Shown here piece by piece: positions 292 through 64,000 of a DNA stretch of 64,000 bases. The stretch is from a virus: positions 1 through 64,000 of IMG/VR virus record IMGVR_UViG_3300047548_001372; one strand, given 5' to 3'. Below the pieces are notes generated by a model. The model saw nothing but the letters and a program-made list of their open reading frames with translations. It was not told where the DNA came from and searched no databases. A program made the translations under genes and the position numbers. Each line of letters opens with the position of its first letter. Positions within the stretch are counted from its first letter, which is position 1.

Positions 292-328
292 CAAAAAAAA
301 GAAGCTATCAGGATTTTCCTGATAGCTT
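292..328 (-). terminator. Rho-independent terminator ending the leftward early transcript
   Basis: aagctatcagga/tcctgatagctt hairpin preceded by an A-run on + (U-tail on -). Confidence 0.75.
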
Positions 329-440
329 GCGCGGGAATTATAAAATCTATACGATAAAAATCCTGAAAATAGAATTATAAGTAAAAATGCTATCGTATAG
401 GTTTTATCCTACCTAATGTATTTATATTTATACTTCTAGT

Positions 441-953
441 TTATACTTCTAGCGCGCTAAACTTTAGGAAAGCATAAAGCTTTCCATCCTGTAAATGAAA
501 ACCGTTATACAATGCGTTGATGTGATCAGCTTCCCGCAATGCCATATTGTGCTGATGTGCTAAACGCTCTGTCAAGTATGTGTTATCAATATACTCCTTT
601 TCTAAGAACGTATATACTACCCACGCCATCACGTGTCCCAAACCTGTCCATCGATATGATACCATGTTGTGAGAAAACACGGTATATTGTACATTGTTTA
701 GGTATTGCTTCACACCATGCAAGCCCCTTTGCTCGTAAGCAAGATTCAATTCAACTTTGTTATAGTTTGTGTGGTATTGTAGCATACTGTATCCCAGCTT
801 GTAATCAACACAGGATGCAACATAGTAATGCACAGTATCAAGCTCTTCTACCAATTCACAATACTTTACAAAATCCATACGATCGCTATAGTACAGAGTG
901 TCAAGCGCCTTGAAATATGCTTGCTGTGCGATCTTAGCGTTCGTGGTTGTCAT
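441..953 (-). CDS. early protein, paralogue family A
   Basis: 170 aa with its own promoter; shares YHTN...L..vQYTVF.....RW.g..h.m motif with 3178, 3831, 12487, 13022. Confidence 0.8.
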   Translation of the reverse strand: MTTTNAKIAQQAYFKALDTLYYSDRMDFVKYCELVEELDTVHYYVASCVDYKLGYSMLQYHTNYNKVELNLAYEQRGLHGVKQYLNNVQYTVFSHNMVSYRWTGLGHVMAWVVYTFLEKEYIDNTYLTERLAHQHNMALREADHINALYNGFHLQDGKLYAFLKFSALEV

Positions 954-990
954 GGTTGTTTTACTTTCCTTGTTAACTGATTACTTTGGT

Positions 991-1057
991 ATTATATCAC
1001 TTGCCGCGCACGATGTCAAGAGCTTTGTGTTAGAGAAGCATTAACATCGTGCGCGGG
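991..1057 (-). promoter_or_regulatory. early promoter cassette copy 1
   Basis: TTGACA(1019-1014)-17-TATAAT(996-991); arms ccgcgcacgatgt/acatcgtgcgcgg. Confidence 0.9.
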
Positions 1058-1063
1058 AATAGC

Positions 1064-1408
1064 CTACCATAGATCTACAGACACATCCCAATTCTTAGGA
1101 AAGAACTGATCTACAAACACTCCTACAGACCTAACATCATCTTGCGTAACAGTACTACGCTCTGTAAGAGCTTCACTATTTACAAAGACTCTGTTATTAA
1201 AACTATCAAAAACTACATTACAGTTACAGACATTGCCTACAATCTCAAAATCTAAACACGCATCATCATTATCCATACCCTGCATGAAAACGCTTACCAG
1301 AATATCATTATGAATAAACCAAAGCCTACCATGCAAATCGTTTACCAAATCGCCTAGAAACGTCGTGTTGTTCTTGAGGATGTTACGAACTGAGGTAACG
1401 TTGTTCAT
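1064..1408 (-). CDS. hypothetical early protein
   Basis: 114 aa between cassette copies; AGAAAG RBS. Confidence 0.75.
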   Translation of the reverse strand: MNNVTSVRNILKNNTTFLGDLVNDLHGRLWFIHNDILVSVFMQGMDNDDACLDFEIVGNVCNCNVVFDSFNNRVFVNSEALTERSTVTQDDVRSVGVFVDQFFPKNWDVSVDLW

Positions 1409-1450
1409 TGTGGTTTATTCTTTCTTACTAACTTGCTTGATTACACCAGC

Positions 1451-1517
1451 ATTATACCACAGCCCGCACATCCTGTCAAGAGCTTTCTGTTAGATAAGTG
1501 TTAACAGGATGCGCGGG
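1451..1517 (-). promoter_or_regulatory. early promoter cassette copy 2
   Basis: TTGACA-17-TATAAT, box and inverted repeat. Confidence 0.9.
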
Positions 1518-1528
1518 AATATCTAATA

Positions 1529-1987
1529 CTACTTTACAAAAATTGTCTTAAGTGTTTCAAATAACTCATTTGCAACACTATTTGAAAAATCAATACGCAA
1601 TTCAGCAAATCCTAGTTGCTTTTTTCCAAAATCTGGTACCTTTACCGCATACCGTACCATAAAATAAAATGGTACACTGTTATTACTTAGCTGCGAATTA
1701 TTTACTACTATTTTTAGATAAGGGCTATTGTTGCGCCTATACCAATGATCATAGTACGTGTTATTACTATCTGTAGTGGTAAACCCGTGCCGATCATCAT
1801 CATCAAGCACATACGTATGCAAGTTGTGCGTGCACCGATCTACAGACACATTTACAATACTATCATCACGCTTTACACCGTAAAGCATAAACTTGGTTGG
1901 AGTAATTACAAACTTAGCAGGATTTGTAATTACATAATATACATAGCTTTTCACATACGACGTAGTACCATCGAATTGGGTTTTCAT
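1529..1987 (-). CDS. early protein, paralogue family B
   Basis: likely start MKTQF (the track's start lies inside the promoter); PAKFvITP..F...DsIVNvSVDR.TH shared with 8982..9458. Confidence 0.8.
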   Translation of the reverse strand: MKTQFDGTTSYVKSYVYYVITNPAKFVITPTKFMLYGVKRDDSIVNVSVDRCTHNLHTYVLDDDDRHGFTTTDSNNTYYDHWYRRNNSPYLKIVVNNSQLSNNSVPFYFMVRYAVKVPDFGKKQLGFAELRIDFSNSVANELFETLKTIFVK

Positions 1988-2023
1988 TACTTTTTCTCTA
2001 TCTACTTGCTTGACTACACTGGT

Positions 2024-2090
2024 ATTATACCACTTGCCGCGCATCCTGTCAAGAGCTTTTTGTTAGAAGATCGTTAGCAGGATGCGCGGC
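2024..2090 (-). promoter_or_regulatory. early promoter cassette copy 3
   Basis: TTGACA-17-TATAAT, box and inverted repeat. Confidence 0.9.
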
Positions 2091-2095
2091 TAATG

Positions 2096-2365
2096 TTATT
2101 GCATATGACTAATGATAAAATCGTTAAACCAGCTCTTGGTATACTCCTTTACCTCACTACCATTATATACAATAGTAATCAAATCATCACTATAAAAATC
2201 TGTACCCCATGGTACAACTGCATGTAGTTTGAATTGCATATTTGTTTTACAATAACTCCCTAGCACACACTCACCATGATGCTCAAACGCAAACCAACAA
2301 GTGTTGTCATTATTGAAAACTACGTGCATACCAAAATCTTTTAGTGTTGTTGTTACTTCTGACAT
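2096..2365 (-). CDS. hypothetical early protein
   Basis: 89 aa with its own promoter and RBS. Confidence 0.75.
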   Translation of the reverse strand: MSEVTTTLKDFGMHVVFNNDNTCWFAFEHHGECVLGSYCKTNMQFKLHAVVPWGTDFYSDDLITIVYNGSEVKEYTKSWFNDFIISHMQ

Positions 2366-2402
2366 TGTCTGTTTCTTTCTAGCTAGCTTCGATTACATTT
2401 GT

Positions 2403-2467
2403 ATTATACCACTTGCCGCGCATCCTGTCAAGAGCTTTTTGTTAGAAAAGTGTTAACATCGTGCGCG
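2403..2467 (-). promoter_or_regulatory. early promoter cassette copy 4 (mismatched, chimeric arms)
   Basis: left arm ccgcgcatcctgt, right arm acatcgtgcgcg. Confidence 0.9.
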
Positions 2468-2498
2468 AGAATAGTTAATTACTCTTTTACATAAAATA

Positions 2499-2744
2499 TC
2501 ATGTGCGGGGGTTTTGGTCTAATAGCCGTGCCACCATCACATACCGCGCATAGAACGCAGTATGCACGCACAGATCATCTAATGCGTGTAAAACGTTATT
2601 ATGTTCTGATTCTGGAATTAAAGCCAGAATAGATTTTACTACATTTTCCACATACTCCTTGTCACCTTCAGAAACAGCACACATGTTCGCAAGGATTGAA
2701 CGATGGTGTGCTGGAGTTACGTTTGGATAAAGATTGTCAAACAT
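2499..2744 (-). CDS. hypothetical early protein
   Basis: 81 aa with its own promoter and RBS. Confidence 0.75.
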   Translation of the reverse strand: MFDNLYPNVTPAHHRSILANMCAVSEGDKEYVENVVKSILALIPESEHNNVLHALDDLCVHTAFYARYVMVARLLDQNPRT

Positions 2745-2782
2745 TGTGTTATCCTTCTTTCTATAACTTCGATTACACTAGT

Positions 2783-2837
2783 ATTATACCATACCCGCCC
2801 AACATTGTCTACTGGTTTTTGTTAGAGATGTGCTAAC
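2783..2837 (-). promoter_or_regulatory. early promoter cassette copy 5 (no outer arm)
   Basis: TAGACA-17-TATAAT; box TGTTAG-n5-TGCTAA overlaps the upstream gene's stop. Confidence 0.85.
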
Positions 2838-3054
2838 GAGTGTTATCTACCCAAATAGCACTAGTGTTGAGAATACGCTTTATATAGTTGTACGCATCCC
2901 AATCGCAAAACTCCCATTTACTCTCGTCGTTATACTTTTCTACCGATAAAATACCGTCGTATTTTCGTATATACACACGATATACATCATCCGGACTTGT
3001 TATTATTAACTCTTCTACACCATCTATACGAGAAACCAGAATAATTGTATACAT
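2833..3054 (-). CDS. hypothetical early protein
   Basis: likely start MYTII after AAGGAGG RBS. Confidence 0.75.
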   Translation of the reverse strand: MYTIILVSRIDGVEELIITSPDDVYRVYIRKYDGILSVEKYNDESKWEFCDWDAYNYIKRILNTSAIWVDNTR

Positions 3055-3090
3055 TGTTTTGCCCTCCTTGTTAACTCTGATTACACCAGT

Positions 3091-3156
3091 ATTATACCAC
3101 AGCCCGCGCATCCTGTCAATAGGTTTGTGTTAGAAAAGTGTTAACAGGATGCGCGG
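3091..3156 (-). promoter_or_regulatory. early promoter cassette copy 6
   Basis: TTGACA-17-TATAAT, box and inverted repeat. Confidence 0.9.
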
Positions 3157-3177
3157 CAATTATAAACACCTTAGAAA

Positions 3178-3729
3178 TTAGAAAATAGCTACCCTACTCT
3201 CTCTGGGAAAAGCATACAGCGTGTCATCTTTAATGTGAAACGATGTATACTTTTCTGTCAAAGCAGCGCCACTGTCAAGCGCCATTTTTAAGTTATGTTC
3301 CGCATAATTCTCAAAAACAAAATCATAGGTTGGATTCCTTTTGTAATCGCAATATTGCCATGTTATCCATTGGATAACATGATTTGCCGATGCCCATCGG
3401 CAAATCATAGATTCATTTGTAAAAACATAGAATTGCGTAGCTTTCAGGTAACTTTGCAAGCCATACACACCAGCTACTGCAAGCGCATGTTCCGCATCTG
3501 TACTGACAAAATTGGTATGGTATTTTGCGTACACTGCTACCATAGGGTGTGATTCTACAGAGTCTTTAATATACCAAAAAAGATCCTGTAATTGTGTTGC
3601 AATTTCTCTGTAATCATCCTGATCCATGTCAACAGCGTTTGTTAAATTGGCCAAACGAGGGGCATTAAACAGCCCCATAAGGCGCGTATAGGCATCTAGT
3701 GCTCGTGTGCCGCAATTTACTTCTGTCAT
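3178..3729 (-). CDS. early protein, paralogue family A
   Basis: likely start MTEVNCG; tandem duplicate of 3831..4424. Confidence 0.85.
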   Translation of the reverse strand: MTEVNCGTRALDAYTRLMGLFNAPRLANLTNAVDMDQDDYREIATQLQDLFWYIKDSVESHPMVAVYAKYHTNFVSTDAEHALAVAGVYGLQSYLKATQFYVFTNESMICRWASANHVIQWITWQYCDYKRNPTYDFVFENYAEHNLKMALDSGAALTEKYTSFHIKDDTLYAFPRESRVAIF

Positions 3730-3771
3730 TACTTTCCTCTCTCTCTCTCTCGTTAACTTGATTACACTGGT

Positions 3772-3827
3772 ATTATACCACTTCCCGCGCATCCTGTCAA
3801 GAGCTTTCTGTTAGAAAAGTGTTAACA
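3772..3827 (-). promoter_or_regulatory. early promoter cassette copy 7
   Basis: TTGACA-17-TATAAT and box; outer arm lost. Confidence 0.9.
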
Positions 3828-3830
3828 AAA

Positions 3831-4424
3831 TCACGGGTATATTACAACTATTTTAGAAAATGGTATTGATATAGGTACGATATTACTACGTGAAAAAGCA
3901 CACAGCACATTGTTATTAATGTGAAAAGAAGTATACTTTTTTGTCATGGAACTACCATCATCAAGTGCCATTTTGAAATTATCTTCTGCATAATTCTGAA
4001 AAGACGTATCATAAATTGGATTCTTTTTCCAATCGCAATATTGCCAAACAATCCAATTCATAATGTGATCTAATGATGCCCACCGACAAATAATAGACTT
4101 ATTTGTAAAAGTGTAAAATTGGCAAGCTTTCAAGTAAGTATGCAAACCATGCATACCTGCCAACTCACACGCATGTTCTGCATCAGCATATACAAAATTA
4201 GTATGATATCTCTCAACATCTTGATACGCCAGCATCATAGGATGCGTTTCTACAGATTCTTTGATATACCAGAAGAGATCTTTGAGCTGGGTAAAAATCT
4301 CTTTGTAATCATCCTGATCTATCTGATCCACGTTAGTAACATTTACCAAACGAGGGGCATTAAACAGCCCCACAAGGCGCGTATAGGCATCTAGCGCACG
4401 TGTCCCACAATTTACTTCTGTCAT
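3831..4424 (-). CDS. early protein, paralogue family A
   Basis: 197 aa; N-terminus MTEVNCGTRALDAYTRL identical to the neighbouring gene. Confidence 0.85.
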   Translation of the reverse strand: MTEVNCGTRALDAYTRLVGLFNAPRLVNVTNVDQIDQDDYKEIFTQLKDLFWYIKESVETHPMMLAYQDVERYHTNFVYADAEHACELAGMHGLHTYLKACQFYTFTNKSIICRWASLDHIMNWIVWQYCDWKKNPIYDTSFQNYAEDNFKMALDDGSSMTKKYTSFHINNNVLCAFSRSNIVPISIPFSKIVVIYP

Positions 4425-4460
4425 TTTTATCTCTTTCTTTCGCTAGCTTATTACACTAGT

Positions 4461-4526
4461 ATTATACCACTTACCGCGCACGATGTCAAGAGCTTTCTGT
4501 TAGAAAAGTGTTAACATCGTGCACGG
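4461..4526 (-). promoter_or_regulatory. early promoter cassette copy 8
   Basis: TTGACA-17-TATAAT; cacgat-type arms. Confidence 0.9.
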
Positions 4527-4539
4527 CAGGTGCTAGGAT

Positions 4540-4737
4540 TCACTCCATCACAGACTCATACATAGCTACCGCATCCAAATATTCACACGCAGTAATAAAA
4601 TCACGAACAGGGCGATATTCAAACGCATGTACCATACCATACACAGGATGCTCTTCTGATCGTACATACTTACCAATTCCTGGTAGTTCTAGCCGCTCAT
4701 CTGCTTGACGATCATGAAACCATACTAGAAACTTCAT
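4540..4737 (-). CDS. hypothetical early protein
   Basis: 65 aa; AAGAAAGGA RBS and its own promoter. Confidence 0.75.
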   Translation of the reverse strand: MKFLVWFHDRQADERLELPGIGKYVRSEEHPVYGMVHAFEYRPVRDFITACEYLDAVAMYESVME

Positions 4738-4765
4738 ACTTGTATCCTTTCTTGATTACACTAGC

Positions 4766-4831
4766 ATTATACCACGTGCCGCGCATCCTGTCAACTACTT
4801 TTTGTTAGAAGATCATTAACAGAATGCGCGG
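4766..4831 (-). promoter_or_regulatory. early promoter cassette copy 9
   Basis: TTGACA-17-TATAAT, box and inverted repeat. Confidence 0.9.
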
Positions 4832-4840
4832 TAAGAATTA

Positions 4841-5098
4841 TTACAAGTACATCTCAAAATCTTCGATAGCGATCAATCCCCGCTTCGAAGAGATCACGCG
4901 ATTCACGTGCGCAAGGAACTTCTTGGCGAACTTCTCATCAAAGAAGCTGATCCAATCGTTGGTAAGGGAGTCATGGCGGAAGTTGTAAATCTTCCCTCCC
5001 GGCTTCTTTTCCTGCATAACCTTGTAGGCTACGCCATCATACTCCACATAGTAGCTAACGTACGCACCGCCAATGTCCTGCATGAAGATGTTACGCAT
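4841..5098 (-). CDS. hypothetical early protein
   Basis: 85 aa; visibly higher GC than its neighbours. Confidence 0.75.
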   Translation of the reverse strand: MRNIFMQDIGGAYVSYYVEYDGVAYKVMQEKKPGGKIYNFRHDSLTNDWISFFDEKFAKKFLAHVNRVISSKRGLIAIEDFEMYL

Positions 5099-5135
5099 TG
5101 GGTTTTGCTTTCTAGTTAACTTCGATTACATTCGT

Positions 5136-5201
5136 ATTATAGCACAGCCGCGCATATTTGTCTACAGGTTTTTGTTAGAGAAGTGTTAACGTTATGCGCG
5201 G
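5136..5201 (-). promoter_or_regulatory. early promoter cassette copy 10
   Basis: TAGACA-17-TATAAT, box and inverted repeat. Confidence 0.85.
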
Positions 5202-5204
5202 GTA

Positions 5205-5591
5205 TTACATAACCTTCACATCAGGATTACACAAACCATTTATCCATAATCCCAATATCAAAGAGTCTGCAAAAGACAGCTCCACATGGCTATGCTCCAC
5301 ACCGCCAAACCTCACATACCAGACCGCTTTGTAATCTTCTGTATAATGTTTGAATTGTGCTATTAGTAAAGGATTCTCAACACTAAAGGCAGCGTTTGCA
5401 TAACTGTAATTAAATACATACGTTGGATTCTCTTCTGCATTTTTTAAGAACGAAGTTGCTTTACGGAAGCCATGCGCATGGAACATTTGAGCGTGTGCGT
5501 TTATACATACTGTCTTGTGATCCATGTATAACGACAGTAATGTTAAACTATCTTTACTATCGCCCTTGATAAAAATATGATCTCTTTCCAT
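5205..5591 (-). CDS. hypothetical early protein (possible distant family B member)
   Basis: 128 aa; C-terminal W.vr......v.lsF pattern. Confidence 0.7.
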   Translation of the reverse strand: MERDHIFIKGDSKDSLTLLSLYMDHKTVCINAHAQMFHAHGFRKATSFLKNAEENPTYVFNYSYANAAFSVENPLLIAQFKHYTEDYKAVWYVRFGGVEHSHVELSFADSLILGLWINGLCNPDVKVM

Positions 5592-5629
5592 AACCTTCGG
5601 CTCTTTCTATTTCAATTGATTACACAAGC

Positions 5630-5686
5630 ATCATACCATACTGAAAGCTACTCTGTCAACTAGTTTGTGTTAGAGAAACGTTAACA
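5630..5686 (-). promoter_or_regulatory. early promoter cassette copy 11 (no inverted repeat)
   Basis: TTGACA-18-TATGAT and box; upstream TAA stop lies in GTTAAC. Confidence 0.8.
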
Positions 5687-6058
5687 TACCTTCATCTTGA
5701 CAAGCTCTATCCCATTGTGGTATACTACGTAGGCTATACCTGCCTCATATATCAAATCATAACATGATTGACAAGGTTTTGATATTGTAGGTTTATTATT
5801 TCTATCTATTCTAGCGCTATAACATATAGTGTTTGTAATATCAGCCCGCGCACGTATGATAGCGCGTGCTTCGGCATGGATTGTACAAACACTTGATCTA
5901 TAACGCTGCTGCACAGGATGCGTGCGATAACAATTGCACGCAACAGAAAAGACACGCTTTCCAGAAGCTATAATACTACCGTGTTTATAATTACATTGCG
6001 ATAATTCCGCAACTTTGAGCGCTAGTTGAAAATTGGTATAATCTCTGTTAGTAAGCAT
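5681..6058 (-). CDS. cytidine/dCMP deaminase-family zinc protein
   Basis: HAE...PCxxC motifs (TIHAEARA, KPCQSC). Confidence 0.85.
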   Translation of the reverse strand: MLTNRDYTNFQLALKVAELSQCNYKHGSIIASGKRVFSVACNCYRTHPVQQRYRSSVCTIHAEARAIIRARADITNTICYSARIDRNNKPTISKPCQSCYDLIYEAGIAYVVYHNGIELVKMKVC

Positions 6059-6098
6059 AAAAAAAAAATAATCCCTATATGTTTGTATAGGGATTATT
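6058..6098 (-). terminator. Rho-independent terminator
   Basis: aataatccctata/tatagggattatt hairpin plus long A-run on +. Confidence 0.7.
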
Positions 6099-6105
6099 GT
6101 AAAAA

Positions 6106-6618
6106 CTACTTATCTACTGCTACGTAAAACTTTCCTACTTGCCCCAAATTTACTTCATAATTCCAAAACGTTTCACCATCATGCACCATTTCAATACTTG
6201 CTTTTACTTTACATCGTGTAGTGATAATTCCTCCAATCCGATACACTCCCACAGTACCAGTATGAACGCTACCATACAGTACCGAAGTATTACGCTGCAC
6301 AGCAGCATCATACTCTTCTTTTGTAATTTGCTTTTCTAAAAGCTGTTTGTCTAGCTTATTAGCCTCATACGTACTATTGTATTTGAAGACACGCAAATCT
6401 AAGGTGTCTTGCTTTTCGCCAAGATATTCAAAACCATCTTCGAATATCTGATTTAGATAAACTGTTGGCTTTTGTAGTTTCCACACAAGCCATCCTGTTT
6501 CACGATCTACAATATAATAATTTCCCTTCTGCTCTTTACCATCACACTTGATAATCAAAAACCGTGATAGAAAACTAGCCTTGCGATCCTTCTTAGCCTT
6601 TGCTGCTGCTGATGGCAT
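6106..6618 (-). CDS. hypothetical protein
   Basis: 170 aa with AAAGGA RBS. Confidence 0.75.
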   Translation of the reverse strand: MPSAAAKAKKDRKASFLSRFLIIKCDGKEQKGNYYIVDRETGWLVWKLQKPTVYLNQIFEDGFEYLGEKQDTLDLRVFKYNSTYEANKLDKQLLEKQITKEEYDAAVQRNTSVLYGSVHTGTVGVYRIGGIITTRCKVKASIEMVHDGETFWNYEVNLGQVGKFYVAVDK

Positions 6619-6750
6619 GAAACATTCCTTTGCTAAAAATCCTGAAAAGAGAATTGCTTACCTAGTTGCTTACCTTATGGTTTTATTATACCATACGTTG
6701 CGCGGGAATAGTGTTAGAGAAGTATTATACTTACCCCCGCGCAATATCAG

Positions 6751-6999
6751 TTACTTTGTTACAATATTAAACTCATAAATAGAATAGTCATCACGTAGAT
6801 CATCGATGTCCATAGAATATCCTAATGACTTACTGATATTCTTTAGCACATCATAGATCGTAGCTACACAACGATCGTATGTGAAGTTAGGGTTAGATGA
6901 CCAGTACAAGTTATCTGAACCTGGAGTATGATATAGCGCCATGTCATTGTCATACAATGATGCTAGCTTGCATCCTGAAATAAAAAACGTGTTATTCAT
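6751..6999 (-). CDS. hypothetical protein
   Basis: 82 aa; GAGGAG RBS. Confidence 0.7.
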   Translation of the reverse strand: MNNTFFISGCKLASLYDNDMALYHTPGSDNLYWSSNPNFTYDRCVATIYDVLKNISKSLGYSMDIDDLRDDYSIYEFNIVTK

Positions 7000-7002
7000 T
7001 AT

Positions 7003-7095
7003 TTACTCCTCAAAGCTCTTCATTACAAGCCAAAGCACATACAAAATCACCAGTGTACCAAGGATCACCATAATGCTGCTGCCTAATCCATCCAT
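7003..7095 (-). CDS. small membrane peptide (30 aa)
   Basis: MDGLGSSIMVILGTLVILYVLWLVMKSFEE read manually; AAGGAG RBS directly after promoter copy 12. Confidence 0.6.
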   Translation of the reverse strand: MDGLGSSIMVILGTLVILYVLWLVMKSFEE

Positions 7096-7127
7096 AGGTT
7101 TTTACTCCTTTGCTTGATTACGTTTGT

Positions 7128-7181
7128 ATTATACCACTTCCCGCGCATCCTGTCAAGAGCTTTGTGTTAGAAAAGTGTTAG
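7128..7181 (-). promoter_or_regulatory. early promoter cassette copy 12
   Basis: TTGACA-17-TATAAT and box. Confidence 0.9.
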
Positions 7182-7514
7182 CTATACCATATATACAATA
7201 TTTTTTGAAAATCCTACAATAGACAATTCAAAAACATCCTTGATTTTCTCAAAAATATTATTGCTACAATCACGAACTTCTACTTGTAGCGTGTCATTAT
7301 TAAACTGACAATACAAATCTACCAACACACTATCAATAACTATGTAGAAAATACACCCATCCTGAAACTTATAAGTAATTTTGTAATCAGGATCTACCCA
7401 AGGACTATTGTCATACATATATACATACTGATGCGTGGTGTGGTTTAGTGGTACCGTTTTTACAATAGTACCAATCTTTTCCAAACCGCTCTTAATACTA
7501 TCTGCTGCGTTCAT
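7182..7514 (-). CDS. hypothetical early protein
   Basis: 110 aa with its own promoter. Confidence 0.7.
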   Translation of the reverse strand: MNAADSIKSGLEKIGTIVKTVPLNHTTHQYVYMYDNSPWVDPDYKITYKFQDGCIFYIVIDSVLVDLYCQFNNDTLQVEVRDCSNNIFEKIKDVFELSIVGFSKNIVYMV

Positions 7515-7541
7515 AGTTTTTGTTTTCTTGATTACTCTGTC

Positions 7542-7610
7542 ATTATACCATTAGCCGCGCAAGATGTCAAGAGCTTTTTGTTAAAAACCCGTTAACACCT
7601 TGCGCGGCTA
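7542..7610 (-). promoter_or_regulatory. early promoter cassette copy 13
   Basis: TTGACA-17-TATAAT; arms tagccgcgcaag/cttgcgcggcta. Confidence 0.9.
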
Positions 7611-7615
7611 ATGTA

Positions 7616-8131
7616 TTACTTAATACAATTGATCCATCTACACTCATCAAATGTACTAGTGTTCTTAATAACTACACTCATATCAGCTTCACGAAACACA
7701 GACCTAGTAAACTCATTTTCCTCTAACTTCACGCTAAAAAACCATGGTGAAGTAATATCACATACAGTAAAATAATTGCGCAAGAATTGCGCATTTGTTA
7801 AGTTACACTGAAACAGATGTGCTCTGTTGAAAGAGCAGTTAATAAAGATACAATCACTAAACTCTACGTACCGTGCTTGCACAAAATCAAAATGACAGTT
7901 GACAAACACGGTACCAGAAAAACTGCTACCAGAAAAATCACTACCGTTGAAAGACGCCTTATTAAACACACACCCACGCATGTTATCCGGCATCCTACAT
8001 TCGTGAAACGCTACGCTTGTCGTAGTAAGGTTATCAAACGTTAGGCCGTAAAACGACACACCAAGAAACGTATCGTATGGAGTAGGATTGGTAAGGCTGT
8101 CAATCTGTGCACTGGTAGGGTTGGTAAGCAC
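7616..8131 (-). CDS. pentapeptide-repeat protein
   Basis: repeats ASFNG SDFSG SSFSG TVFVN CHFDF ... AHLFQ CNLTN AQFLR. Confidence 0.85.
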   Translation of the reverse strand: MLTNPTSAQIDSLTNPTPYDTFLGVSFYGLTFDNLTTTSVAFHECRMPDNMRGCVFNKASFNGSDFSGSSFSGTVFVNCHFDFVQARYVEFSDCIFINCSFNRAHLFQCNLTNAQFLRNYFTVCDITSPWFFSVKLEENEFTRSVFREADMSVVIKNTSTFDECRWINCIK

Positions 8132-8166
8132 TGTTTTTATTCTTTCTATTTTAGATTACTTTTAGA

Positions 8167-8361
8167 TTACTTTTCAAATCGATTGTTTAATGCTTGAGCT
8201 GTAGCAGCATACTCCGCCCTCGTGACGCATTTAGGATCTTTCCGACAAGCCTCTTCTACTTGCTGCTGTGTCATATTTCTGTGTGGCATATCAGCAGCAC
8301 CACATGCCAGAATAAACAGTAACATTCCGATTGACAGACCTACTACAATAATTCGCTTCAC
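8167..8361 (-). CDS. small lipoprotein
   Basis: signal peptide MKRIIVVGLSIGMLLFILA-C with lipobox-like ILAC. Confidence 0.65.
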   Translation of the reverse strand: MKRIIVVGLSIGMLLFILACGAADMPHRNMTQQQVEEACRKDPKCVTRAEYAATAQALNNRFEK

Positions 8362-8398
8362 GATTAGTTTACTTTCTAACTAACTTGATTACTCCACT

Positions 8399-8464
8399 AT
8401 TATACCATACCCGCCCAACGTTGTCTACTGGTTTTTGTTAGAAAAACGTTAACATTGGGCGGGT
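8399..8464 (-). promoter_or_regulatory. early promoter cassette copy 14
   Basis: TAGACA-17-TATAAT; variant arms cccgcccaa/ttgggcggg. Confidence 0.9.
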
Positions 8465-8475
8465 TTAGGGAAACG

Positions 8476-8862
8476 TTAGATCTGGTATACCTCTACACCA
8501 TTACAAATACTATTTAGCTTTTCCTTTAACTTTTGTAAACCACTTTCTGATAACGGATTACACTCTGCCCCTATTTGCAAACGTACGCTACCATCAGCAG
8601 TGTAAAAGTTATCTGTAGCGCTGTTATACATAATATCAATATCTATTTCACCATATACTGCAATGCTCATAATGTCTTCATCGAAACATGCACAGAGGAG
8701 TTTTTTACCAAACATAAAGTAAATCCATGTTTGATCATACTTATCCCATCGACCAAACCCTAACACTTTTACATTACGACGTGTGATAAACGGCTCAAAT
8801 GCTCTGATTACATCCTTGTTTTGCAAATTGTGAAGCATTGTCCTGTTATACGTGCTGCTCAT
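8476..8862 (-). CDS. hypothetical early protein
   Basis: 128 aa with its own promoter. Confidence 0.75.
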   Translation of the reverse strand: MSSTYNRTMLHNLQNKDVIRAFEPFITRRNVKVLGFGRWDKYDQTWIYFMFGKKLLCACFDEDIMSIAVYGEIDIDIMYNSATDNFYTADGSVRLQIGAECNPLSESGLQKLKEKLNSICNGVEVYQI

Positions 8863-8908
8863 TGTGTTGTTTCCTAGCTAACTAACTAACTAACTTGATT
8901 ACTTTGTT

Positions 8909-8974
8909 ATTATACCACAGCCCGCGCATCCTGTCAATAGGTTTTTGTTAGAACTTTGTTAACAGGATGCGCGG
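8909..8974 (-). promoter_or_regulatory. early promoter cassette copy 15
   Basis: TTGACA-17-TATAAT, box and inverted repeat. Confidence 0.9.
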
Positions 8975-8981
8975 CAATTAT

Positions 8982-9458
8982 TTAATAACGATATACAAAA
9001 GCATCCTTTAACATCCTGAAAATCTCTCTCCCTTCATCATTAGGAAAATAGATACAAGCTCCAATAGATTGTAGCTGTCTTTCCCGAAAGCCTCTAATAC
9101 GTGTTGGCACGTGTGCTGTGAAGTAAAATGGTACGTTATCATCATCTAACTGTGAATCATATACCGTAATCATTAAACTAGGATTATCCAAACGATTATG
9201 GATAGAATGATAGTATTGTGATGTGATGTCTGTAGCAGTAAAGTTATTCATATGATCATAAATAACATCATGATCATCAGACAACGTACGTGAAACCCGT
9301 GTACATGTGGTATGCGTGCGCCTATCTACAGACGCATTGACAATATCACCATACTTTGTAGCAGTAAATGAAAACCTGTTTGGAGTAATCAGAAACTTAG
9401 CAGGGTAGTTTTCCCAAACGCCATCTACGATACGCTTTGAAAATCCTTCGAATTGCAT
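8982..9458 (-). CDS. early protein, paralogue family B
   Basis: clear paralogue of 1529..1987. Confidence 0.8.
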   Translation of the reverse strand: MQFEGFSKRIVDGVWENYPAKFLITPNRFSFTATKYGDIVNASVDRRTHTTCTRVSRTLSDDHDVIYDHMNNFTATDITSQYYHSIHNRLDNPSLMITVYDSQLDDDNVPFYFTAHVPTRIRGFRERQLQSIGACIYFPNDEGREIFRMLKDAFVYRY

Positions 9459-9485
9459 GATAGTTGTTCTTTCTATTTACTAACT

Positions 9486-9532
9486 CCCGCGCATCGTTTC
9501 TAAAACATATAGTTATTAAAGCGATGCGCGGG
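9486..9532. repeat. promoter-less inverted repeat of the cassette type
   Basis: cccgcgcatcg...cgatgcgcggg between two genes. Confidence 0.7.
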
Positions 9533-9543
9533 AATACTAAGCA

Positions 9544-9915
9544 CTATCCAATATAATACCCGTACAATCCACTCAAATCATTCGTATATTTGATAAGCGC
9601 AACTTCGATCGTGTCCAGTGTTACTGGAGTATCACCAACAGCGCCAGCGCCACGTACGCCACCAGCAGGACGAACACCTAGCGCTAACGTGTTACCATCC
9701 CAGAAGCCACGCTTGGCTTCTGGCAAACTAGGACAGAGATCACGCAACACGTTTACTGTTGCTGCGTGTCCGTTTAGGTTTTCCGTAACACGTGCTAGCA
9801 TAGCTGGAAGCTCTGCGATAGAGATACGCTTCCATACCAACATACCATCATCAAACGAGGGTGAAACGATCGTGCTAATCAGCGTGAGCTTGGTATCCTT
9901 GTGTAGTGAGAACAT
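9544..9915 (-). CDS. putative AcrIII-1/DUF1874 (STIV B116/YddF-like) cA4 ring nuclease
   Basis: 123 aa; N-terminal L-I-S-T-x-x-x-P strand, kRIs..E helix, and GHAAT matching the family's GH-x-A-T catalytic His motif. Confidence 0.55.
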   Translation of the reverse strand: MFSLHKDTKLTLISTIVSPSFDDGMLVWKRISIAELPAMLARVTENLNGHAATVNVLRDLCPSLPEAKRGFWDGNTLALGVRPAGGVRGAGAVGDTPVTLDTIEVALIKYTNDLSGLYGYYIG

Positions 9916-9949
9916 GGTGTATTGTCCTTTCTTGATTACTTACATTGGT

Positions 9950-10004
9950 ATTATACCACTTCCCGCGTAACTTGTCTATAGACTTTTGTTAGAAGATCGT
10001 TAAC
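9950..10004 (-). promoter_or_regulatory. early promoter cassette copy 16
   Basis: TAGACA-17-TATAAT and box; upstream stop lies in GTTAAC. Confidence 0.85.
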
Positions 10005-10125
10005 AAAAATCGCTGTAATCAATACCAGTATGTGTTGGATATTGCCTACTGTTATTGATTTTTGCTAGCTCATTCCGCTGCGTGCGTGCGAGAATATAAA
10101 ACATAACCATCTTGATAAACTTCAT
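10000..10125 (-). CDS. small hypothetical protein (41 aa)
   Basis: MKFIKMVMFYILART... read manually; AGAAAGAG RBS. Confidence 0.5.
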   Translation of the reverse strand: MKFIKMVMFYILARTQRNELAKINNSRQYPTHTGIDYSDFC

Positions 10126-55292: not shown

Positions 55293-55637
55293 ATGCAATA
55301 CCTCTTAATTAATAACGCGAGCGTGCTAAAACAGATTGGCGATGGTATTCTTGTGCGCTACTCTGTTTCTGCGTATGAAGGATCTCCTACAATTACGAAT
55401 AGTGATTATTCTTCTGGTTTGTTTTTAGGTGATTATGACTTAGTTATTCTTGTGCGCGCACAAGATACTACAGAAATGATCAAAAATGCACTTATTGCTG
55501 CATTTCAAGCAATCACTATTTCTAACGACAAAGCACTTGCATTACGCGGTCAGCGTGTGGATTGTTTGCTTACTGAAACTGCAAAACCTAAGCTACCAAA
55601 TTACACATTAAGTTATGGTGATAGTAATGTCAGTTAA
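55293..55637 (+). CDS. hypothetical protein
   Basis: likely start MQYLL. Confidence 0.65.
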   Translation: MQYLLINNASVLKQIGDGILVRYSVSAYEGSPTITNSDYSSGLFLGDYDLVILVRAQDTTEMIKNALIAAFQAITISNDKALALRGQRVDCLLTETAKPKLPNYTLSYGDSNVS

Positions 55638-55968
55638 AACGCTACCAAACCTTCGCGCATATTCTGTACGTAATGCAATTGTTGCTATGACAGATTTTAC
55701 GTACAAACATCGTCGTGTTGGAGTATTGTGGGTAGATAAAGATACTCACAAAAGCCTACAAGATTACTACGTAGGAGTAGTGTGCGCGAATGATAATACA
55801 GAGGCAATTCTTCACTTCATGATTAACACCAACGCTATTACAACATATGGGAAGGAGTATGTATTTGATGAACTAGTATTTTATTTTGAAAATTATCATC
55901 ATCAACTTCCAAAAATGTGTATATGGGATAATGATTCTTATTGTATTATTGATGAGTATGAGCAATGA
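55627..55968 (+). CDS. hypothetical protein
   Basis: likely start MSVKT; ATGA overlap with the methyltransferase. Confidence 0.65.
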   Translation: MSVKTLPNLRAYSVRNAIVAMTDFTYKHRRVGVLWVDKDTHKSLQDYYVGVVCANDNTEAILHFMINTNAITTYGKEYVFDELVFYFENYHHQLPKMCIWDNDSYCIIDEYEQ

Positions 55969-56762
55969 TTACATTACACCACAAAGACTGTCTAGAAATA
56001 CTAAAAACACTACCAAATGCAAGTATTGATGCAGTAATTACCGATCCTCCATATCTTACTACTGATTTACACTTTGATAAAGCGGGTAATGCGTTACCTA
56101 ATCCTCTACAATGGATTCATGAGCTTCTACGAGTAGTTAAACCAAATGGCTATTTAGCACTCTTTTCACCAGTAGAAGTACAAGCACAAGTTGCACAGAT
56201 TTGGTCAATGCGCTTTAGTGGGGCTTGGGTAAAACCAGCTGGCTCTATGCGTACACACTCAGCAAAGAAGCCTATGAACCAATGGGAATTATACTGCGTT
56301 TTTGCTCATCCAAAACATAAAGTATCAGAGTTAACTTGGAATAAAGCAATGTATCCAGCAAAACCATATAAGAAAGTAAAAAGAAACCTTGGTTATAAGC
56401 GTGATGGAAAAGATCAACTAGATCGCTCTGATACTTCTGCTTGGACAAAGGAAGGATATGTAGTAGAAAATAATGGTACAAGGTACTACACTGATACGCT
56501 TTTTGGTGGTCAGAAAGCCTATATGCCAATGGCAGAACGTACTATTCATCCTACACAGAAACCAATTGCAGTAGTAGAAGTACTTGTACAGTGGTTAACG
56601 AATACTGGTGAAACAGTACTTGATCCGTTTATGGGGTCTGGTACTACAGGAGTTGCTGCAAAGAAGTTTGATCGTCAGTTTATTGGTGTGGAATGTAATC
56701 ATGAGTATTTTTGTATTGCGAGAGATCGTATTGAGAGTTATACTGTGCGCGCACAAGAATAA
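55965..56762 (+). CDS. N4-C/N6-A DNA methyltransferase (beta class)
   Basis: TDPPY, HPTQKP, LDPFMGSGTT. Confidence 0.92.
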   Translation: MITLHHKDCLEILKTLPNASIDAVITDPPYLTTDLHFDKAGNALPNPLQWIHELLRVVKPNGYLALFSPVEVQAQVAQIWSMRFSGAWVKPAGSMRTHSAKKPMNQWELYCVFAHPKHKVSELTWNKAMYPAKPYKKVKRNLGYKRDGKDQLDRSDTSAWTKEGYVVENNGTRYYTDTLFGGQKAYMPMAERTIHPTQKPIAVVEVLVQWLTNTGETVLDPFMGSGTTGVAAKKFDRQFIGVECNHEYFCIARDRIESYTVRAQE

Positions 56763-61934: not shown

Positions 61935-61944
61935 GAGGCTGTCT

Positions 61945-62169
61945 ATGCCAATGCCTAAACCGCGTCCACGAGAGAATGAGCAGGATTTTATTACACGCTG
62001 TATGGGAAATGATACCATGGTAACTGATTTTCCAGAGAACAATCAGCGTGCTGCGGTGTGCTACCAGCAGTGGAGGGATAGACGTCGTCCACGTAGCCCT
62101 GCTGAAAAGACTGAGGCGAAAGCTCCTTCACGCTTTGATAGTTTGAATACTGGTGAAGTTGATCAATGA
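61945..62169 (+). CDS. small protein with a head-gene-associated motif
   Basis: MP.PKP...E...DFI.RCM......FP...QR.AVCY.QW; TAGGAGG RBS. Confidence 0.7.
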   Translation: MPMPKPRPRENEQDFITRCMGNDTMVTDFPENNQRAAVCYQQWRDRRRPRSPAEKTEAKAPSRFDSLNTGEVDQ

Positions 62170-62183
62170 CAGTAATTTTTGAT

Positions 62184-62224
62184 AAAAAACATCCTCTTAT
62201 ATAGATAGGAGGATGTTTTTTTTT
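62184..62224. terminator. bidirectional terminator
   Basis: aaaaaacatcctc/gaggatgtttttt. Confidence 0.75.
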
Positions 62225-62228
62225 ATTT

Positions 62229-62302
62229 AGTTTGTACATAGTTTACAAGCAGTTTACACCTACTTTACAGATAGTTTACGTATACTTTGTGCAATGTTTA
62301 CC
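62229..62302 (+). repeat. seven 11-bp-phased A(G/C)TTTAC(A) repeats
   Basis: units at 62229, 62240, 62251, 62262, 62273, 62284, 62295. Confidence 0.8.
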
Positions 62303-62313
62303 AAGGATATACT

Positions 62314-63105
62314 ATGGGAAGAAGAAAAATTACTCAAACACAGCAGACACAAGCTCCTCAACCAGCTGTGCGCGTGACAGAAAAAGAAGAAAAACCAACA
62401 CCACCACAATTCAGTACACTTACAAAAGATCAAATTATCGAAGAGTATAAACGATCGTACGACATCGATAACCTAACAACACCAAATGATAGAGCTAATC
62501 TTGATACGATGATTATGAACGCATTAGCTATTCGATCACTACAAGAAAAGCTCTTAGAGTTAGCAGTAGAAAACGTTATTGATAATGCTTCTGATATTAA
62601 ACGCATCAATGACAGTATTCGCGATCTTACACAAACCAATCTTGCTATTGAACGACAGTTAAGTATTGATCGCAAGACAAGAAGGTCAGAATCTGAACAA
62701 TCAGTACTTGAATATATTAACTGGTTAAAAGATGCAGCATCAGAGTTTCTCAGCGATACTCCACGTCTCACAAAGATCTCTTGTAAGCGCTGTAATATTA
62801 TGGTTGGCAGAATTAGCGGTGTGTATGATACCACATTCTTTTCTGCGGAGTTTCAATGTCCACAATGTAAAAAACATATCTATATTCGTAGAGATGAGCG
62901 TGACACATTCTATGACATCAGAGATCCAGATTGGCGTAGAAAGTATCCTATTGAAATTATTCAGCCAAATAACGCTATCCTGGATGCACCGTTGGATACT
63001 GCATTAGTAGAAGATGATGTGGTTATTAGTAATACGGTACAGGATGTTACAGAGTATGAGGATAAGGTAGTTGAGGTTTTTAGTGAGCCGCGCACACAGG
63101 AATAA
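62314..63105 (+). CDS. putative terminase small subunit (with zinc ribbon)
   Basis: directly upstream of terL; helical oligomerisation-like region L.IDRK.R; CxxC..CxxC. Confidence 0.55.
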   Translation: MGRRKITQTQQTQAPQPAVRVTEKEEKPTPPQFSTLTKDQIIEEYKRSYDIDNLTTPNDRANLDTMIMNALAIRSLQEKLLELAVENVIDNASDIKRINDSIRDLTQTNLAIERQLSIDRKTRRSESEQSVLEYINWLKDAASEFLSDTPRLTKISCKRCNIMVGRISGVYDTTFFSAEFQCPQCKKHIYIRRDERDTFYDIRDPDWRRKYPIEIIQPNNAILDAPLDTALVEDDVVISNTVQDVTEYEDKVVEVFSEPRTQE

Positions 63106-63107
63106 CT

Positions 63108-64000
63108 ATGCCTATACGAAAAAAATTAGATGAAAAGGATTTAGATCTTTTAGAAGTACTAGAAGATGAAGTTTGGCTAACTGAGTTTTTACGCAATACA
63201 TCAGACGGTGAACATAACCGTGCACTTTGGCCAGCACAACCATGGAAGTATCGAGACTATCAAAAACAACTACTTACTGATAAATCAAAATACATCTCAC
63301 TTACTGGGGGACGTGCTATTGGTAAGTGTGAGCCTGGTGAAGCAAAGATCCTTACCGTAGGGCGTGGATATATGATGTTGAAAGATCTGGTGAAAGAAAC
63401 ATCATTTCCAGTGTATGCACTAGATCAATACTCTAATCTTGTTCAGCGTAGAGCACGAGTTACACCAGATGACATGGCTCCAGTAAAAAAGATTTATACT
63501 CGTGCGGGGCATTTAATACACGTCACAGCAGAACATCCAATCCTTACACCAGATGGATGGGTAAAAGCAGAAAATATTGATGTAGGATCGTTGGTTGGTG
63601 TATTGACACAAATACCCAACGATATGATCAGTCAAACATTTGCCTGGCATGAATTACGGTTTTTTGGATATATCTTACTAGATCCTCCATTGCGCGAAAG
63701 TACTGTTTTTGTACCAAAGTATAAAAAGATTGGAGAAGAGTTTAAGTACATCTGTTCTCTTTTACCAGTAGATGTATTTCCTCGTGAGAATGGGTTTGGT
63801 GTGCGTAGGATTAAAGGTGGGTATTTTTCTACAATCCGCGCACTTTACAATGATGTAGGTTTTGATGATGACTACGTATTTTCCTTGCGTATGTCAAGTA
63901 TGCCAGAGCTGCTACTGTTAGAATGTAAAGAAAATCTTAAAGTATTTCTTGAAGCGCTGTTTGCTCAATTTGCAGAAGTATCTGCGCGGGAGATTAGTAT
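63108..64000 (+). CDS. terL: terminase large subunit (partial, intein-containing)
   Basis: read manually: R.YQ Q-motif and Walker A GGRAIGK followed by an intein; runs off the window. Confidence 0.85.
   Translation, partial: MPIRKKLDEKDLDLLEVLEDEVWLTEFLRNTSDGEHNRALWPAQPWKYRDYQKQLLTDKSKYISLTGGRAIGKCEPGEAKILTVGRGYMMLKDLVKETSFPVYALDQYSNLVQRRARVTPDDMAPVKKIYTRAGHLIHVTAEHPILTPDGWVKAENIDVGSLVGVLTQIPNDMISQTFAWHELRFFGYILLDPPLRESTVFVPKYKKIGEEFKYICSLLPVDVFPRENGFGVRRIKGGYFSTIRALYNDVGFDDDYVFSLRMSSMPELLLLECKENLKVFLEALFAQFAEVSAREIS
63327..64000 (+). mobile_element. intein in the terminase Walker A with a degenerate LAGLIDADG domain
   Basis: C-EPGEAKI N-terminus, T.EHP.LT..GW block B; HEN motifs read FGYILLDPP and FLEALFAQF. 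Confidence 0.8.

Follow-up and report, generated by a model that had tools for sequence, protein, structure and literature searches.

A Directional Three-Part DNA Element Iterated along a Viral Contig and Shared with Its Early Promoters

Introduction

Short DNA words iterated over a whole genome are well understood in bacteria, where Chi, uptake sequences, KOPS and HIP1 are the established examples. In phages we know of few such cases, one being the stoperators of mycobacteriophages. Stoperators number approximately 20–35 copies of 13–14 bp; nearly all are co-oriented with transcription and they lie mostly at gene ends. The present work concerns an iterated word, TGCG(C/G)GG, in the first 64 kb (hereafter the window) of an 85,328 bp IMG/VR virus contig (record IMGVR_UViG_3300047548_001372, designated G000; G+C 39%, CheckV completeness 63%). 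A first-pass annotation, made from the letters alone, had described a motif over-represented along the whole window and had proposed that it was either the site of a phage DNA-binding protein or a methyltransferase-linked signal. The word proved to be the core of a longer, directional element that is also built into the early promoters. A literature search on over-represented phage motifs found nothing pertinent among the papers listed, and a whole-word search for four forms of the 7-mer in article text returned unrelated papers only.

Results

Over-Representation of the Word

On the plus strand of the window, CGCGCA occurred 72 times and TGCGCG 56 times. These 128 sites compare with 13.9 expected under a first-order (dinucleotide) Markov model, and CGCGCA/TGCGCG was the top-ranked hexamer of the window by a wide margin, in agreement with the over-representation first claimed. 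An order-3 Markov model gave an expectation of 45.7, a value inflated by the motif's own sub-words. Up to 15.9 kb there were 40 sites and after it 88, the latter number close to the earlier estimate of roughly 80. The variant CCCGCAC/GTGCGGG, also said to be numerous, was present 11 + 8 = 19 times (2.0 expected), and TGCGCGGG was found 33 times in the window. The whole 85 kb contig contained 164 hexamer sites, 90 in one orientation and 74 in the other, a strand bias that flipped near 54 kb together with the direction of transcription.

A codon-aware null model was obtained by permuting synonymous codons within each gene (200 shuffles). The 126 open reading frames (ORFs) were called by a greedy longest-ORF rule, with a coding fraction of 0.90, and a few of them are probably spurious. 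TGCGCG was present 74 times on the sense strand, with a shuffle mean of 15.2 and a maximum of 29, and CGCGCA 45 times, with a mean of 17.2 and a maximum of 28. The disappearance of the enrichment under a codon- and amino-acid-aware null had been named beforehand as one outcome that would refute the claim; the enrichment persisted. When the early cassettes described below were excluded, the corresponding values were 63 versus 12.2 and 42 versus 13.5 (100 shuffles). The hexamer was written in all three reading frames, always through Arg and Ala codons. The spelling CGC-GCA was used for Arg-Ala in 30 of 120 cases (10.3 expected), and GCG-CGN for Ala-Arg in 34 of 129 cases (13.0 expected). Since the excess survives synonymous shuffling, it is not a codon or amino-acid effect. 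Chance, composition and codon artefact are ruled out by the Markov counts, the synonymous shuffles and the dipeptide spelling, and the word is kept in the genome by selection, not by composition.

Anatomy of the Element

The excess of the hexamer was 8-fold overall. That of TGCGCGG reached 28-fold (99 occurrences, 3.5 expected), the excess of TGCGCGA, TGCGCGC and TGCGCGT being much weaker. TGCGCAG stood near expectation (6 versus 9.0) and GCGCAGG showed no excess. The one-letter neighbours of the hexamer were themselves enriched on the contig, with observed and expected counts of 117 and 37.5 for TGTGCG, 70 and 37.5 for TGCGTG, and 37 and 14.7 for TGCGGG. Neighbours that are enriched rather than drained fit a degenerate binding motif, that is, recognition rather than conversion.

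The flanks were profiled at the 124 sites of the contig lying beyond 16 kb, which form the non-cassette set, all oriented as TGCGCG. Upstream, T reached 56% at position −2 and G 53% at −1, and no information was present at these sites beyond the two positions. Downstream, G reached 51% at +6 and A 52% at +9. A box followed at +13 to +17, with the composition T (40%), A (58%), A/T, A (58%), A (50%), from which C and G were almost excluded. The words composing it were position-specific: GTA at +12, TAT or TAA at +13, AAA at +14 to +16 and AAC at +16, with p values from 1e-6 down to 1e-11. Between +12 and +18, the number of A residues amounted to 3.60 (sense sites), 3.33 (antisense) and 3.35 (intergenic), for a background of 2.17 (sense) and 1.99 (antisense). 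Because the box is equal in the three classes, it is a feature of the DNA and not of the message.

After the box, a tract of approximately 30 nt, reaching about +50, was rich in CA, AC and CC and poor in G and T. From +19 to +49 it contained 4.61 G and 7.75 C per 31 nt, each against 6.24 (standard deviation 0.22). The tract was observed at sense and antisense sites alike, and control hexamers were flat. The variant TGCGGG (33 sites beyond 16 kb) showed the same box, with 3.39 A, and the same CA tract. Eight of nine unrelated control hexamers had 1.5–2.2 A in the box; the ninth, TGGGCG, was marginal at 2.36. The element is directional and has the form TGCG(C/G)GG - N6 - (G)TAWAAA(C) - CA-rich tract.

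Early Cassettes

About 21 repeated control regions precede small minus-strand genes between 0.3 and 15.9 kb and at the right contig end. The description of the motif as paired in early promoters and single elsewhere holds. The promoter form of the cassettes, on the minus strand, is TTGACA-N3-TGCGCGG-N7-TATAAT-ACC, a consensus sigma-70 promoter with a 17 bp spacer. Seventeen sites were of this promoter type, in which TTGACA-N3 is followed by TGCGCGG-N7-TA(T/A)AAT, with both boxes of a sigma-70 promoter in place. In the example unit of Table 1, an arm CCGCGCA (1056–1050) is followed by the −35 box TTGACA (1019–1014), the core TGCGCGG (1010–1004), the −10 box TATAAT (996–991) and the ATG of the gene (953–951). 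The core is inside the spacer, at about −26 to −20, and adjoins the −10 box. The core-to-box arrangement of the 17 promoters is that of the single sites, shifted by one base. Since this geometry is common to the 17 promoters and to 124 other places, we rank first a transcription-linked DNA-binding factor, and tentatively regard the motif as a target that a sequence-specific DNA-binding or transcription factor recognises.

Further cassette-like units with TATAAT or TATAAC boxes were present at 83372, 83544, 84102 and 84136 (contig 82.8–85.3 kb, locus L190), so that the early array continues at the right contig end.

An inverted copy of the word lies approximately 31 nt upstream of the cassette core and co-varies with it. 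The two copies and their neighbouring bases can form a stem of 16 pairs. In 19 aligned cassettes, 82.8% of the cells were paired, compared with 75.3% after shuffling (a level reached by none of 500 shuffles) and 36–41% when the partner was slid. Three stem positions beside the core showed 6–7 double changes each. The core pairs were almost invariant, which points to a constraint on the sequence in addition to that on pairing. Read outward, the upstream arms carry the box and the CA tract of the single sites; like the palindromes, they are copies of this unit that point outward.

The stem, whose base is formed by the cassette copies, speaks for a signal acting in transcripts at the RNA level, whether as a processing site, a stability element or a hairpin clamp. 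A similar pair at 39326/39375 (CGCGCA and TGCGCG, respectively) and several sense-oriented sites 17–30 nt before start codons point the same way. The single sites were found in no unusual structure: the native-minus-shuffled minimum free energy was −1.68 at sites and −1.66 in random windows, and hairpins around single sites were rejected on this basis. The antisense copies are enriched threefold (42 versus 13.5) with the same flank. The terminator scan found no canonical terminator at the palindromes or pairs, whose stems are followed by no T-run, and Rfam gave no match in the window at the gathering threshold. An RNA signal is very unlikely to explain the family as a whole; an RNA-level role for the paired copies only is plausible. 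A clean, motif-free hairpin resembling an intrinsic terminator (12 pairs, then CTTTTTTGTT) is present at 26155–26182 on the minus strand, after the primase-like gene, and the terminators of this phage thus do not use the motif.

The Dispersed Copies

Among the 124 non-cassette sites, 65 were intragenic in the sense orientation, 42 intragenic in the antisense orientation and 17 intergenic (8.4 expected). Twenty-nine were within 30 nt of a gene boundary (a fraction of 0.23, versus 0.12 for random positions), and the sense bias was mild (65:42, p = 0.033). The intergenic excess, the gene-boundary excess and this bias count in favour of recognition by a protein, which is further favoured by the asymmetric bipartite unit and by the variant TGCGGG carrying the same flank. 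The named sites in coding sequence, at gene ends and at gene starts exist, in both orientations.

The mean density was one site per roughly 590 bp. It did not differ between genes common to relatives (1.70 per kilobase) and accessory genes (1.62 per kilobase, p = 0.84), and was about half in early genes (0.91 versus 1.70 per kilobase, p = 0.03). Regular spacing was ruled out by a coefficient of variation of 0.90, inside the random range of 0.83–1.17. The site-free gap previously noticed at about 30,430–34,215 is real (30422–34218) and not unusual, as the probability of a maximal gap at least as long was 0.16 in 2000 random placements.

Sites within intron endonuclease genes and inteins, another feature of the first description, were found in all four elements: the LAGLIDADG gene 58057–58761 (58394), a second endonuclease-like ORF at 48896–49702 (48936, 49557), a weak intein match in the ribonucleotide reductase (RNR) gene (57365, 57425) and the terminase intein (63691, 63837, 63983). 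In the polymerase gene, four of the five sites were in conserved ungapped stretches and one (nt 153) beside a 4-residue extension. Insertion as the origin of the intragenic sites was rejected on the basis of these four. These four exploit V-R-E, V-R-V or A-C-A patterns already present in the protein, in some cases with Val in place of Ile.

All five GTGCGCGCAC palindromes reported earlier were recovered (Table 1). The contig contains the shorter TGCGCGCA at 8 positions, which count as 16 when both strands are read. In related-strain contigs from runs X4 and X5, a motif site has an extra CGCACA behind 53817 (53816–53821), by which a stretch of alternating purines and pyrimidines becomes longer. 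Five perfect TTGACA-N16/17-TATACT or TATGAT matches were observed on the minus strand between 22679 and 28982, at 28982, 27153, 25428, 23163 and 22706. They were the best sigma-70-like matches in the region from 22 to 41 kb and are probably middle promoters of the replication block.

This distribution recalls a nuclease or recombination signal of the Chi type, read on unwound DNA by a RecBCD/AddAB-type enzyme of the host or by the PD-(D/E)XK nuclease and RecA-like system of the phage. Such a signal would safeguard phage DNA in broken or linear form and initiate recombination-dependent replication, and the density of oriented copies alone would matter. The word is short, asymmetric, 8- to 28-fold in excess, mostly intragenic, Poisson-spaced in both orientations and not conserved in position. 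It also occurs in inteins and endonuclease genes, the core and accessory densities are uniform, and a RecA-like protein, a PD-(D/E)XK nuclease and junction resolvases are encoded. The CA tract has a GT-rich complementary strand; recombinases prefer GT-rich DNA, and Chi of Escherichia coli sits in GT-rich islands. However, the box and tract are position-specific here, a fixed-distance flanking box being absent from known Chi sites. The orientation ratio is weak (90:74) and changes together with the direction of transcription, the word has a fixed place in 17 promoters, and the GT-rich flank is found 5' of the C-rich strand, known Chi words being G-rich. Altogether, we consider a Chi-like role rather unlikely, both for the signal itself and for the protective and replicative function that it would serve.

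Relatives

At least 120 homologues of the polymerase were found, with identities from 98% down to 37% among the matches listed, the close relatives being 98–76% identical. Scans with P0002, P0084 and P0087 revealed no close locus. Neither megablast with 16 kb as the query against the phage collection nor blastn with one cassette yielded a match. Among named phages, the polymerase was best matched by cyanophages, with 28% identity, and the portal protein reached at most 28%.

The IMG/VR record G001 (106,876 bp, 35% G+C) is syntenic with G000 and its polymerase is 54% identical. The core is enriched in this genome, with 84 TGCGCG versus 30 for the reversed control, and the excess persisted under synonymous shuffling (34 versus 10.8 and 29 versus 11.6). 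G001 contains 17 TGCGCGCA palindromes (34 on both strands, versus 2.2). TGTGCG/CGCACA was depleted in G001 (4 versus 33.6 expected; loci L179–L184) and enriched in G000. The other relatives are represented by genome fragments. G004, with a polymerase 53% identical, showed no excess (TGCGCGG 7 versus 8, TGCGCG 45 versus 36). The six records at approximately 40% identity showed none either, with 65 versus 65 in G002 and 28 versus 22 in G003, and with 2, 0, 0 and 1 copies of the 7-mer in G005 to G008. In L022, L023 and L025, of approximately 40% polymerase identity, another word, TTGGCCAA, was in excess (8–12 copies versus 0.7–0.8 in 20–22 kb). The word is a lineage-specific trait common to at least two divergent genomes. 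No gene convincingly tracked the presence of the motif across the relatives, which apart from G001 are fragments. As the core is common to one relative with 54% polymerase identity and absent from seven others, the system is young enough to trace.

Methyltransferases, Restriction Sites and Host

Both methyltransferases announced for the window were confirmed, and a third is encoded outside it (Table 1). From their D-P-P-Y motif IV, we take two of the three enzymes to be of the N6-adenine type. TGCGCGG is asymmetric, not a palindrome, and one strand of the core is without adenine. Given the flank requirement, the non-palindromic 7-mer and the motif IV types, a methyltransferase link is not supported. 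Of the two alternatives initially offered, the protein site fits better.

GGWCC was avoided in G000 (1 site versus about 55), as were CYCGRG and ATGCAT (observed/expected 0.16 and 0.10), GAATTC (0 versus 43, both-strand count), CTGCAG (2 versus 44), CTTAAG (0.16) and ACGCGT (0.09). GATC was enriched 1.9-fold. The pattern of avoidance is reminiscent of the AvaI, AvaII and AvaIII systems of Nostocales, and hints at a cyanobacterial, Nostocales-type host. Host searches by two genome-contig scans, with protein P0015 and with a GMP-reductase-like protein, gave no match.

The word might have no function in the phage and might either result from biased repair, linked to methylation or not, or reproduce an oligonucleotide signature of the host, of the HIP1 type. 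According to PMC4390886, hyper-abundant short words of cyanobacteria accompany orphan methyltransferases and may arise without selection. Three DNA methyltransferases are encoded on the contig, the avoided restriction sites hint at such a host, and the word is found at uniform density, in selfish elements too. The dominance of TGCGCGCA and the rarity of TGTGCG in G001 are what a T-to-C conversion would leave. In G000, however, the precursor words are enriched and not depleted. A local repair bias does not predict an asymmetric unit with a box at fixed distance and a 30 nt tract, and the motif IV types (D-P-P-Y twice, T-D-P-P-A-G once) and the lack of adenine on one strand of the core also count against it. 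HIP1 has 0 copies in G000, and G004 avoids GGWCC similarly (0 versus 58.7) yet is without excess of the word. An origin as a by-product or a host copy is unlikely, although the scarcity of TGTGCG leaves some room for it in G001, and recognition by a protein remains the reading that we prefer.

Gene Content and Other Features

The predicted gene set identifies G000 as a tailed phage. The replication block encodes a PolA-type polymerase, a DnaB-like helicase, a DnaG-like primase, a RecA-like protein, a PD-(D/E)XK nuclease and ThyX; junction resolvases and several endonucleases are also encoded. A class II RNR gene with an intein and a LAGLIDADG gene are present, as are a portal gene and a terminase large subunit gene with an intein. 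The coordinates of the main features are collected in Table 1.

Table 1. Features related to the iterated word (window coordinates unless stated otherwise).
Position	Strand	Feature	Basis
328..63988	both	Dispersed family, 128 hexamer sites, extended core TGCG(C/G)GG	Counts, shuffles
328..15886	−	Early cassette array, 40 hexamer sites, 17 of promoter type (TAWAAT at +12..+21), rest mostly inverted upstream arms	
991..1056	−	Example control unit	Read base by base
17224..17562	−	Candidate reader, 112-aa stand-alone helix-turn-helix (HTH) protein, sigma-region-4 / GerE-LuxR type, replication block	
25665..25674		GTGCGCGCAC palindrome inside primase-like gene 25220–26149	
28144..28153		GTGCGCGCAC palindrome, junction of genes 28137–28508 and 27751–28125	
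30408..30439		Perfect 32-bp intergenic palindrome centred on GTGCGCGCAC (30419); two outward-pointing units sharing the core	
39326..39380	−	Cassette-like inverted pair (second hexamer at 39375), late intergenic gap, 13-nt complementary arms CGCGCACATTATT / AATAATGTGCGCG	
53044..53511	−	Second weak HTH protein, candidate reader	
53571..53578		TGCGCGCA palindrome, divergent intergenic region between minus- and plus-strand gene blocks	
55452..55461		GTGCGCGCAC palindrome inside ORF 55278–55637	
55965..56762	+	PF01555 DNA methyltransferase, motif IV D-P-P-Y	
56745..56754		GTGCGCGCAC palindrome, end of methyltransferase gene 55965–56762, 28 nt before RNR start codon	
59797..60999	+	PF01555 DNA methyltransferase, motif IV T-D-P-P-A-G	
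contig 69516–70202		Third PF01555 methyltransferase, outside the window, motif IV D-P-P-Y	

The replication genes and the density of the word bear on another explanation, in which T/GCGCGG would be a site of specific nicking or priming and would provide entry points for replication, recombination or repair. The spacing of one site per approximately 590 bp is similar in magnitude to the intervals of lagging-strand priming, and a DnaG-like primase, a DnaB-like helicase and several endonucleases are encoded. Known primases, however, recognise three to five bases. A literature search for GCGCRGG had PMC3517423 as its sole match. In this paper, the four major nicks of phage T5 have the consensus 5'-R/GCGCRGG-3', which matches GCGCGG(G) of the motif, and the nick sites of T5, tf and phiKMV-like phages are described as few and on one strand only. 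The present word is found on both strands (72 versus 56 in the window), in approximately 160 copies, and has a T and not a purine before GCGCGG. The proteins of G000 are not akin to those of T5; the best named relatives of G000 are the cyanophages with 28% polymerase identity. We regard nicking or priming as an improbable function of the word.

The 859-aa intein-bearing protein encoded from 63108 to 64000 and onward to 65687 matched the terminase large subunit (phrog_2). The next gene (contig 65737–67230, locus L191) resembled portal proteins of Bacillus phages, with 24–28% identity. The two genes are distant from the capsid genes, located at 48–50 kb. A conserved gene at 62287–63105, to which no function is assigned, directly precedes the terminase gene. 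These genes raise the question of a packaging self-tag analogous to DNA uptake sequences, in which the terminase or a partner would prefer the core with its A/T flank, phage DNA would be selected in preference to that of the host, and the word would spread by drive. The architecture of the element parallels the uptake sequences of Pasteurellaceae, and its density is kept rather than its position. However, G001 is reported with direct terminal repeats, suggesting defined ends, nothing ties the terminase genes to the word, and the early genes have only half the density. We know of no phage terminase using a genome-wide word, and such a tag appears most improbable.

The runs containing the phage DNA were labelled freshwater or aquatic metagenomes, and two of them, both from what may be the source sample, contained at least half of the sampled words; runs with a small share of these words were left aside for the habitat label. 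No RNA run was present among the listed runs containing the phage DNA. Related-strain contigs were assembled from runs X3–X6, and 40 of 2013 differences were listed. Contigs of runs X3, X5 and X6 join across 44734–46108/46118, which removes a 451-aa tube-like paralogue, and one contig of run X6 skips 52336–53129, corresponding to a PAPS-reductase-like gene.

Discussion

In the reading that we favour, the three-part directional element, with its core TGCG(C/G)GG, a TAWAAA-like box 6–7 bases on and approximately 30 CA-rich, G-poor bases, would be read on double-stranded DNA by a sequence-specific protein working with the transcription machinery. The likeliest reader would be a phage-encoded tetrahelical HTH factor of the sigma region 4 / GerE-LuxR type, such as the product of 17224–17562. 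Bound in the spacer of the cassettes, this factor could switch the early sigma-70 promoters. The approximately 124 dispersed copies, which have no −35 box, might constitute extra sites of binding, initiation or roadblock, their number and not their place being important. As they have neither a −35 box nor the T at the sixth position of the box, the dispersed single sites are not ordinary sigma-70 promoters. From these sequence features we infer that a protein reads the element, which protein it may be, and that transcription is affected.

The family matches of the 112-aa HTH protein were weak. Pfam matches were below the cut-off, the best solved structure was ComA (E = 0.024), and the language-model look-alikes belonged to the HTH_50, GerE and Sigma70_r4 clusters. 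Homologues were present in G001, G004 and L024. ComA, of the same fold class, reads TTGCGG hexamers according to PMC4797271. The 155-aa HTH protein of 53044–53511 gave no assignment to a family.

Several observations weigh against recognition by such a factor. With 107 of the 124 non-cassette sites (86%) inside genes and 42 antisense, the copies are far beyond what gene regulation needs, and their spacing is Poisson-like, as at random. Some junction sites, only 17–30 nt before a start codon, are too close to drive the gene. Only one of the five best sigma-70-like middle promoters contains the word (25428, just after its −10 box). T amounts to 16% at +18, the sixth position of the box, where a sigma-70 −10 box requires it. 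In two cassettes the core is TGGGCGG, and one of the two has GGGCGG/CCGCCC in both arms, keeping the pairing without the exact word. The flanks differ in G001, where symmetric A/T-rich arms abut the core and no CA tract is present. Positional conservation was ruled out: in 24 orthologous gene pairs, none of the 36 sites of G000 coincided with any of the 13 sites of G001. The recognition-helix region of the HTH protein shows no similarity specific to G000 and G001. Because its homologues also exist in G004 and L024, which are both without enrichment, its assignment as the reader is a guess. A purely regulatory function is made less likely by the copy number, by the 42 copies in antisense, by free turnover and by a box whose last T is missing. 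Functions that depend on density, such as a Chi-like signal, a nick or priming site or a packaging tag, would predict such features.

It is possible, if doubtful, that the word is a phage-borne self signal, of a type that viruses are not known to have. An oriented, three-part word at approximately one copy per 600 bp, on both strands and within genes, inteins and endonuclease genes included, would then allow the phage's own recombination, replication or packaging machinery to recognise phage DNA and process it. Such a word would be the viral equivalent of Chi or uptake sequences, and would also be wired into the early promoters.

Whatever reads it, a phage of an uncultured freshwater clade keeps approximately 160 directional elements, and selection biases the codon choice in most of its genes. 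The reader, if found, might be a transcription factor, a nuclease, a nickase or a terminase, and would reveal a new principle of phage gene control or self-recognition. Its discovery would moreover provide a sequence tag by which this phage clade could be recognised in metagenomes.

The stoperators of cluster A mycobacteriophages such as L5 and Bxb1 are likewise made of one asymmetric word, found in an early promoter and dispersed, including in coding sequence. The present element differs by its approximately 160 copies, its sense to antisense ratio of 65:42, its 86% intragenic location, and a second box followed by a compositional tract. It has no single orientation (65 versus 42) and is not mainly intergenic (17 of 124) or at gene ends (29 of 124). 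No repressor or sign of a temperate lifestyle was seen in G000. Chi sites (E. coli GCTGGTGG, Lactococcus lactis GCGCGTG, Bacillus subtilis AGCGG) are also short oriented words, mostly intragenic, for which density matters more than position, and the word of G000, too, is short, oriented, over-represented and set in place mainly through codon choice. Chi has no flanking box at fixed distance and its orientation follows replication; to our knowledge the word of G000 is identical to no Chi. The uptake sequences of Pasteurellaceae (USS, uptake signal sequences) and Neisseriaceae (DUS, DNA uptake sequences) share with the element a GC-rich core, an A/T-rich flank (at fixed distance here), both orientations, an intragenic location and inverted intergenic pairs. 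They belong to competent bacteria and not to phages, and the pairs of G000 are without terminator T-runs.

Three other systems can be compared. HIP1 and the other iterated palindromes of cyanobacteria (PMC4390886) share an excess of approximately 10-fold or more and the presence of methyltransferase genes, and the word of G001 is mainly the palindromic TGCGCGCA. The unit of G000, in contrast, is non-palindromic with a one-sided flank, HIP1 is absent, and the methyltransferases look adenine-specific. The T5 nick consensus (PMC3517423) shares 6–7 of 7 letters with GCGCGG(G), and T5 has the same G+C content (39%). Its nicks are few and on one strand, whereas the approximately 160 copies in G000 are on both strands and preceded by T. 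The ComA site TTGCGG (PMC4797271) offers a GC-containing hexamer, a small HTH domain and a −10-like box, as do the MotA-box middle promoters of phage T4. In G000 the core occupies −26 to −20, rather than −30 or a place upstream of the polymerase site, and is present in approximately 160 copies. The element thus resembles stoperators, Chi and uptake sequences, each in part, and has the full set of defining features of none of them.

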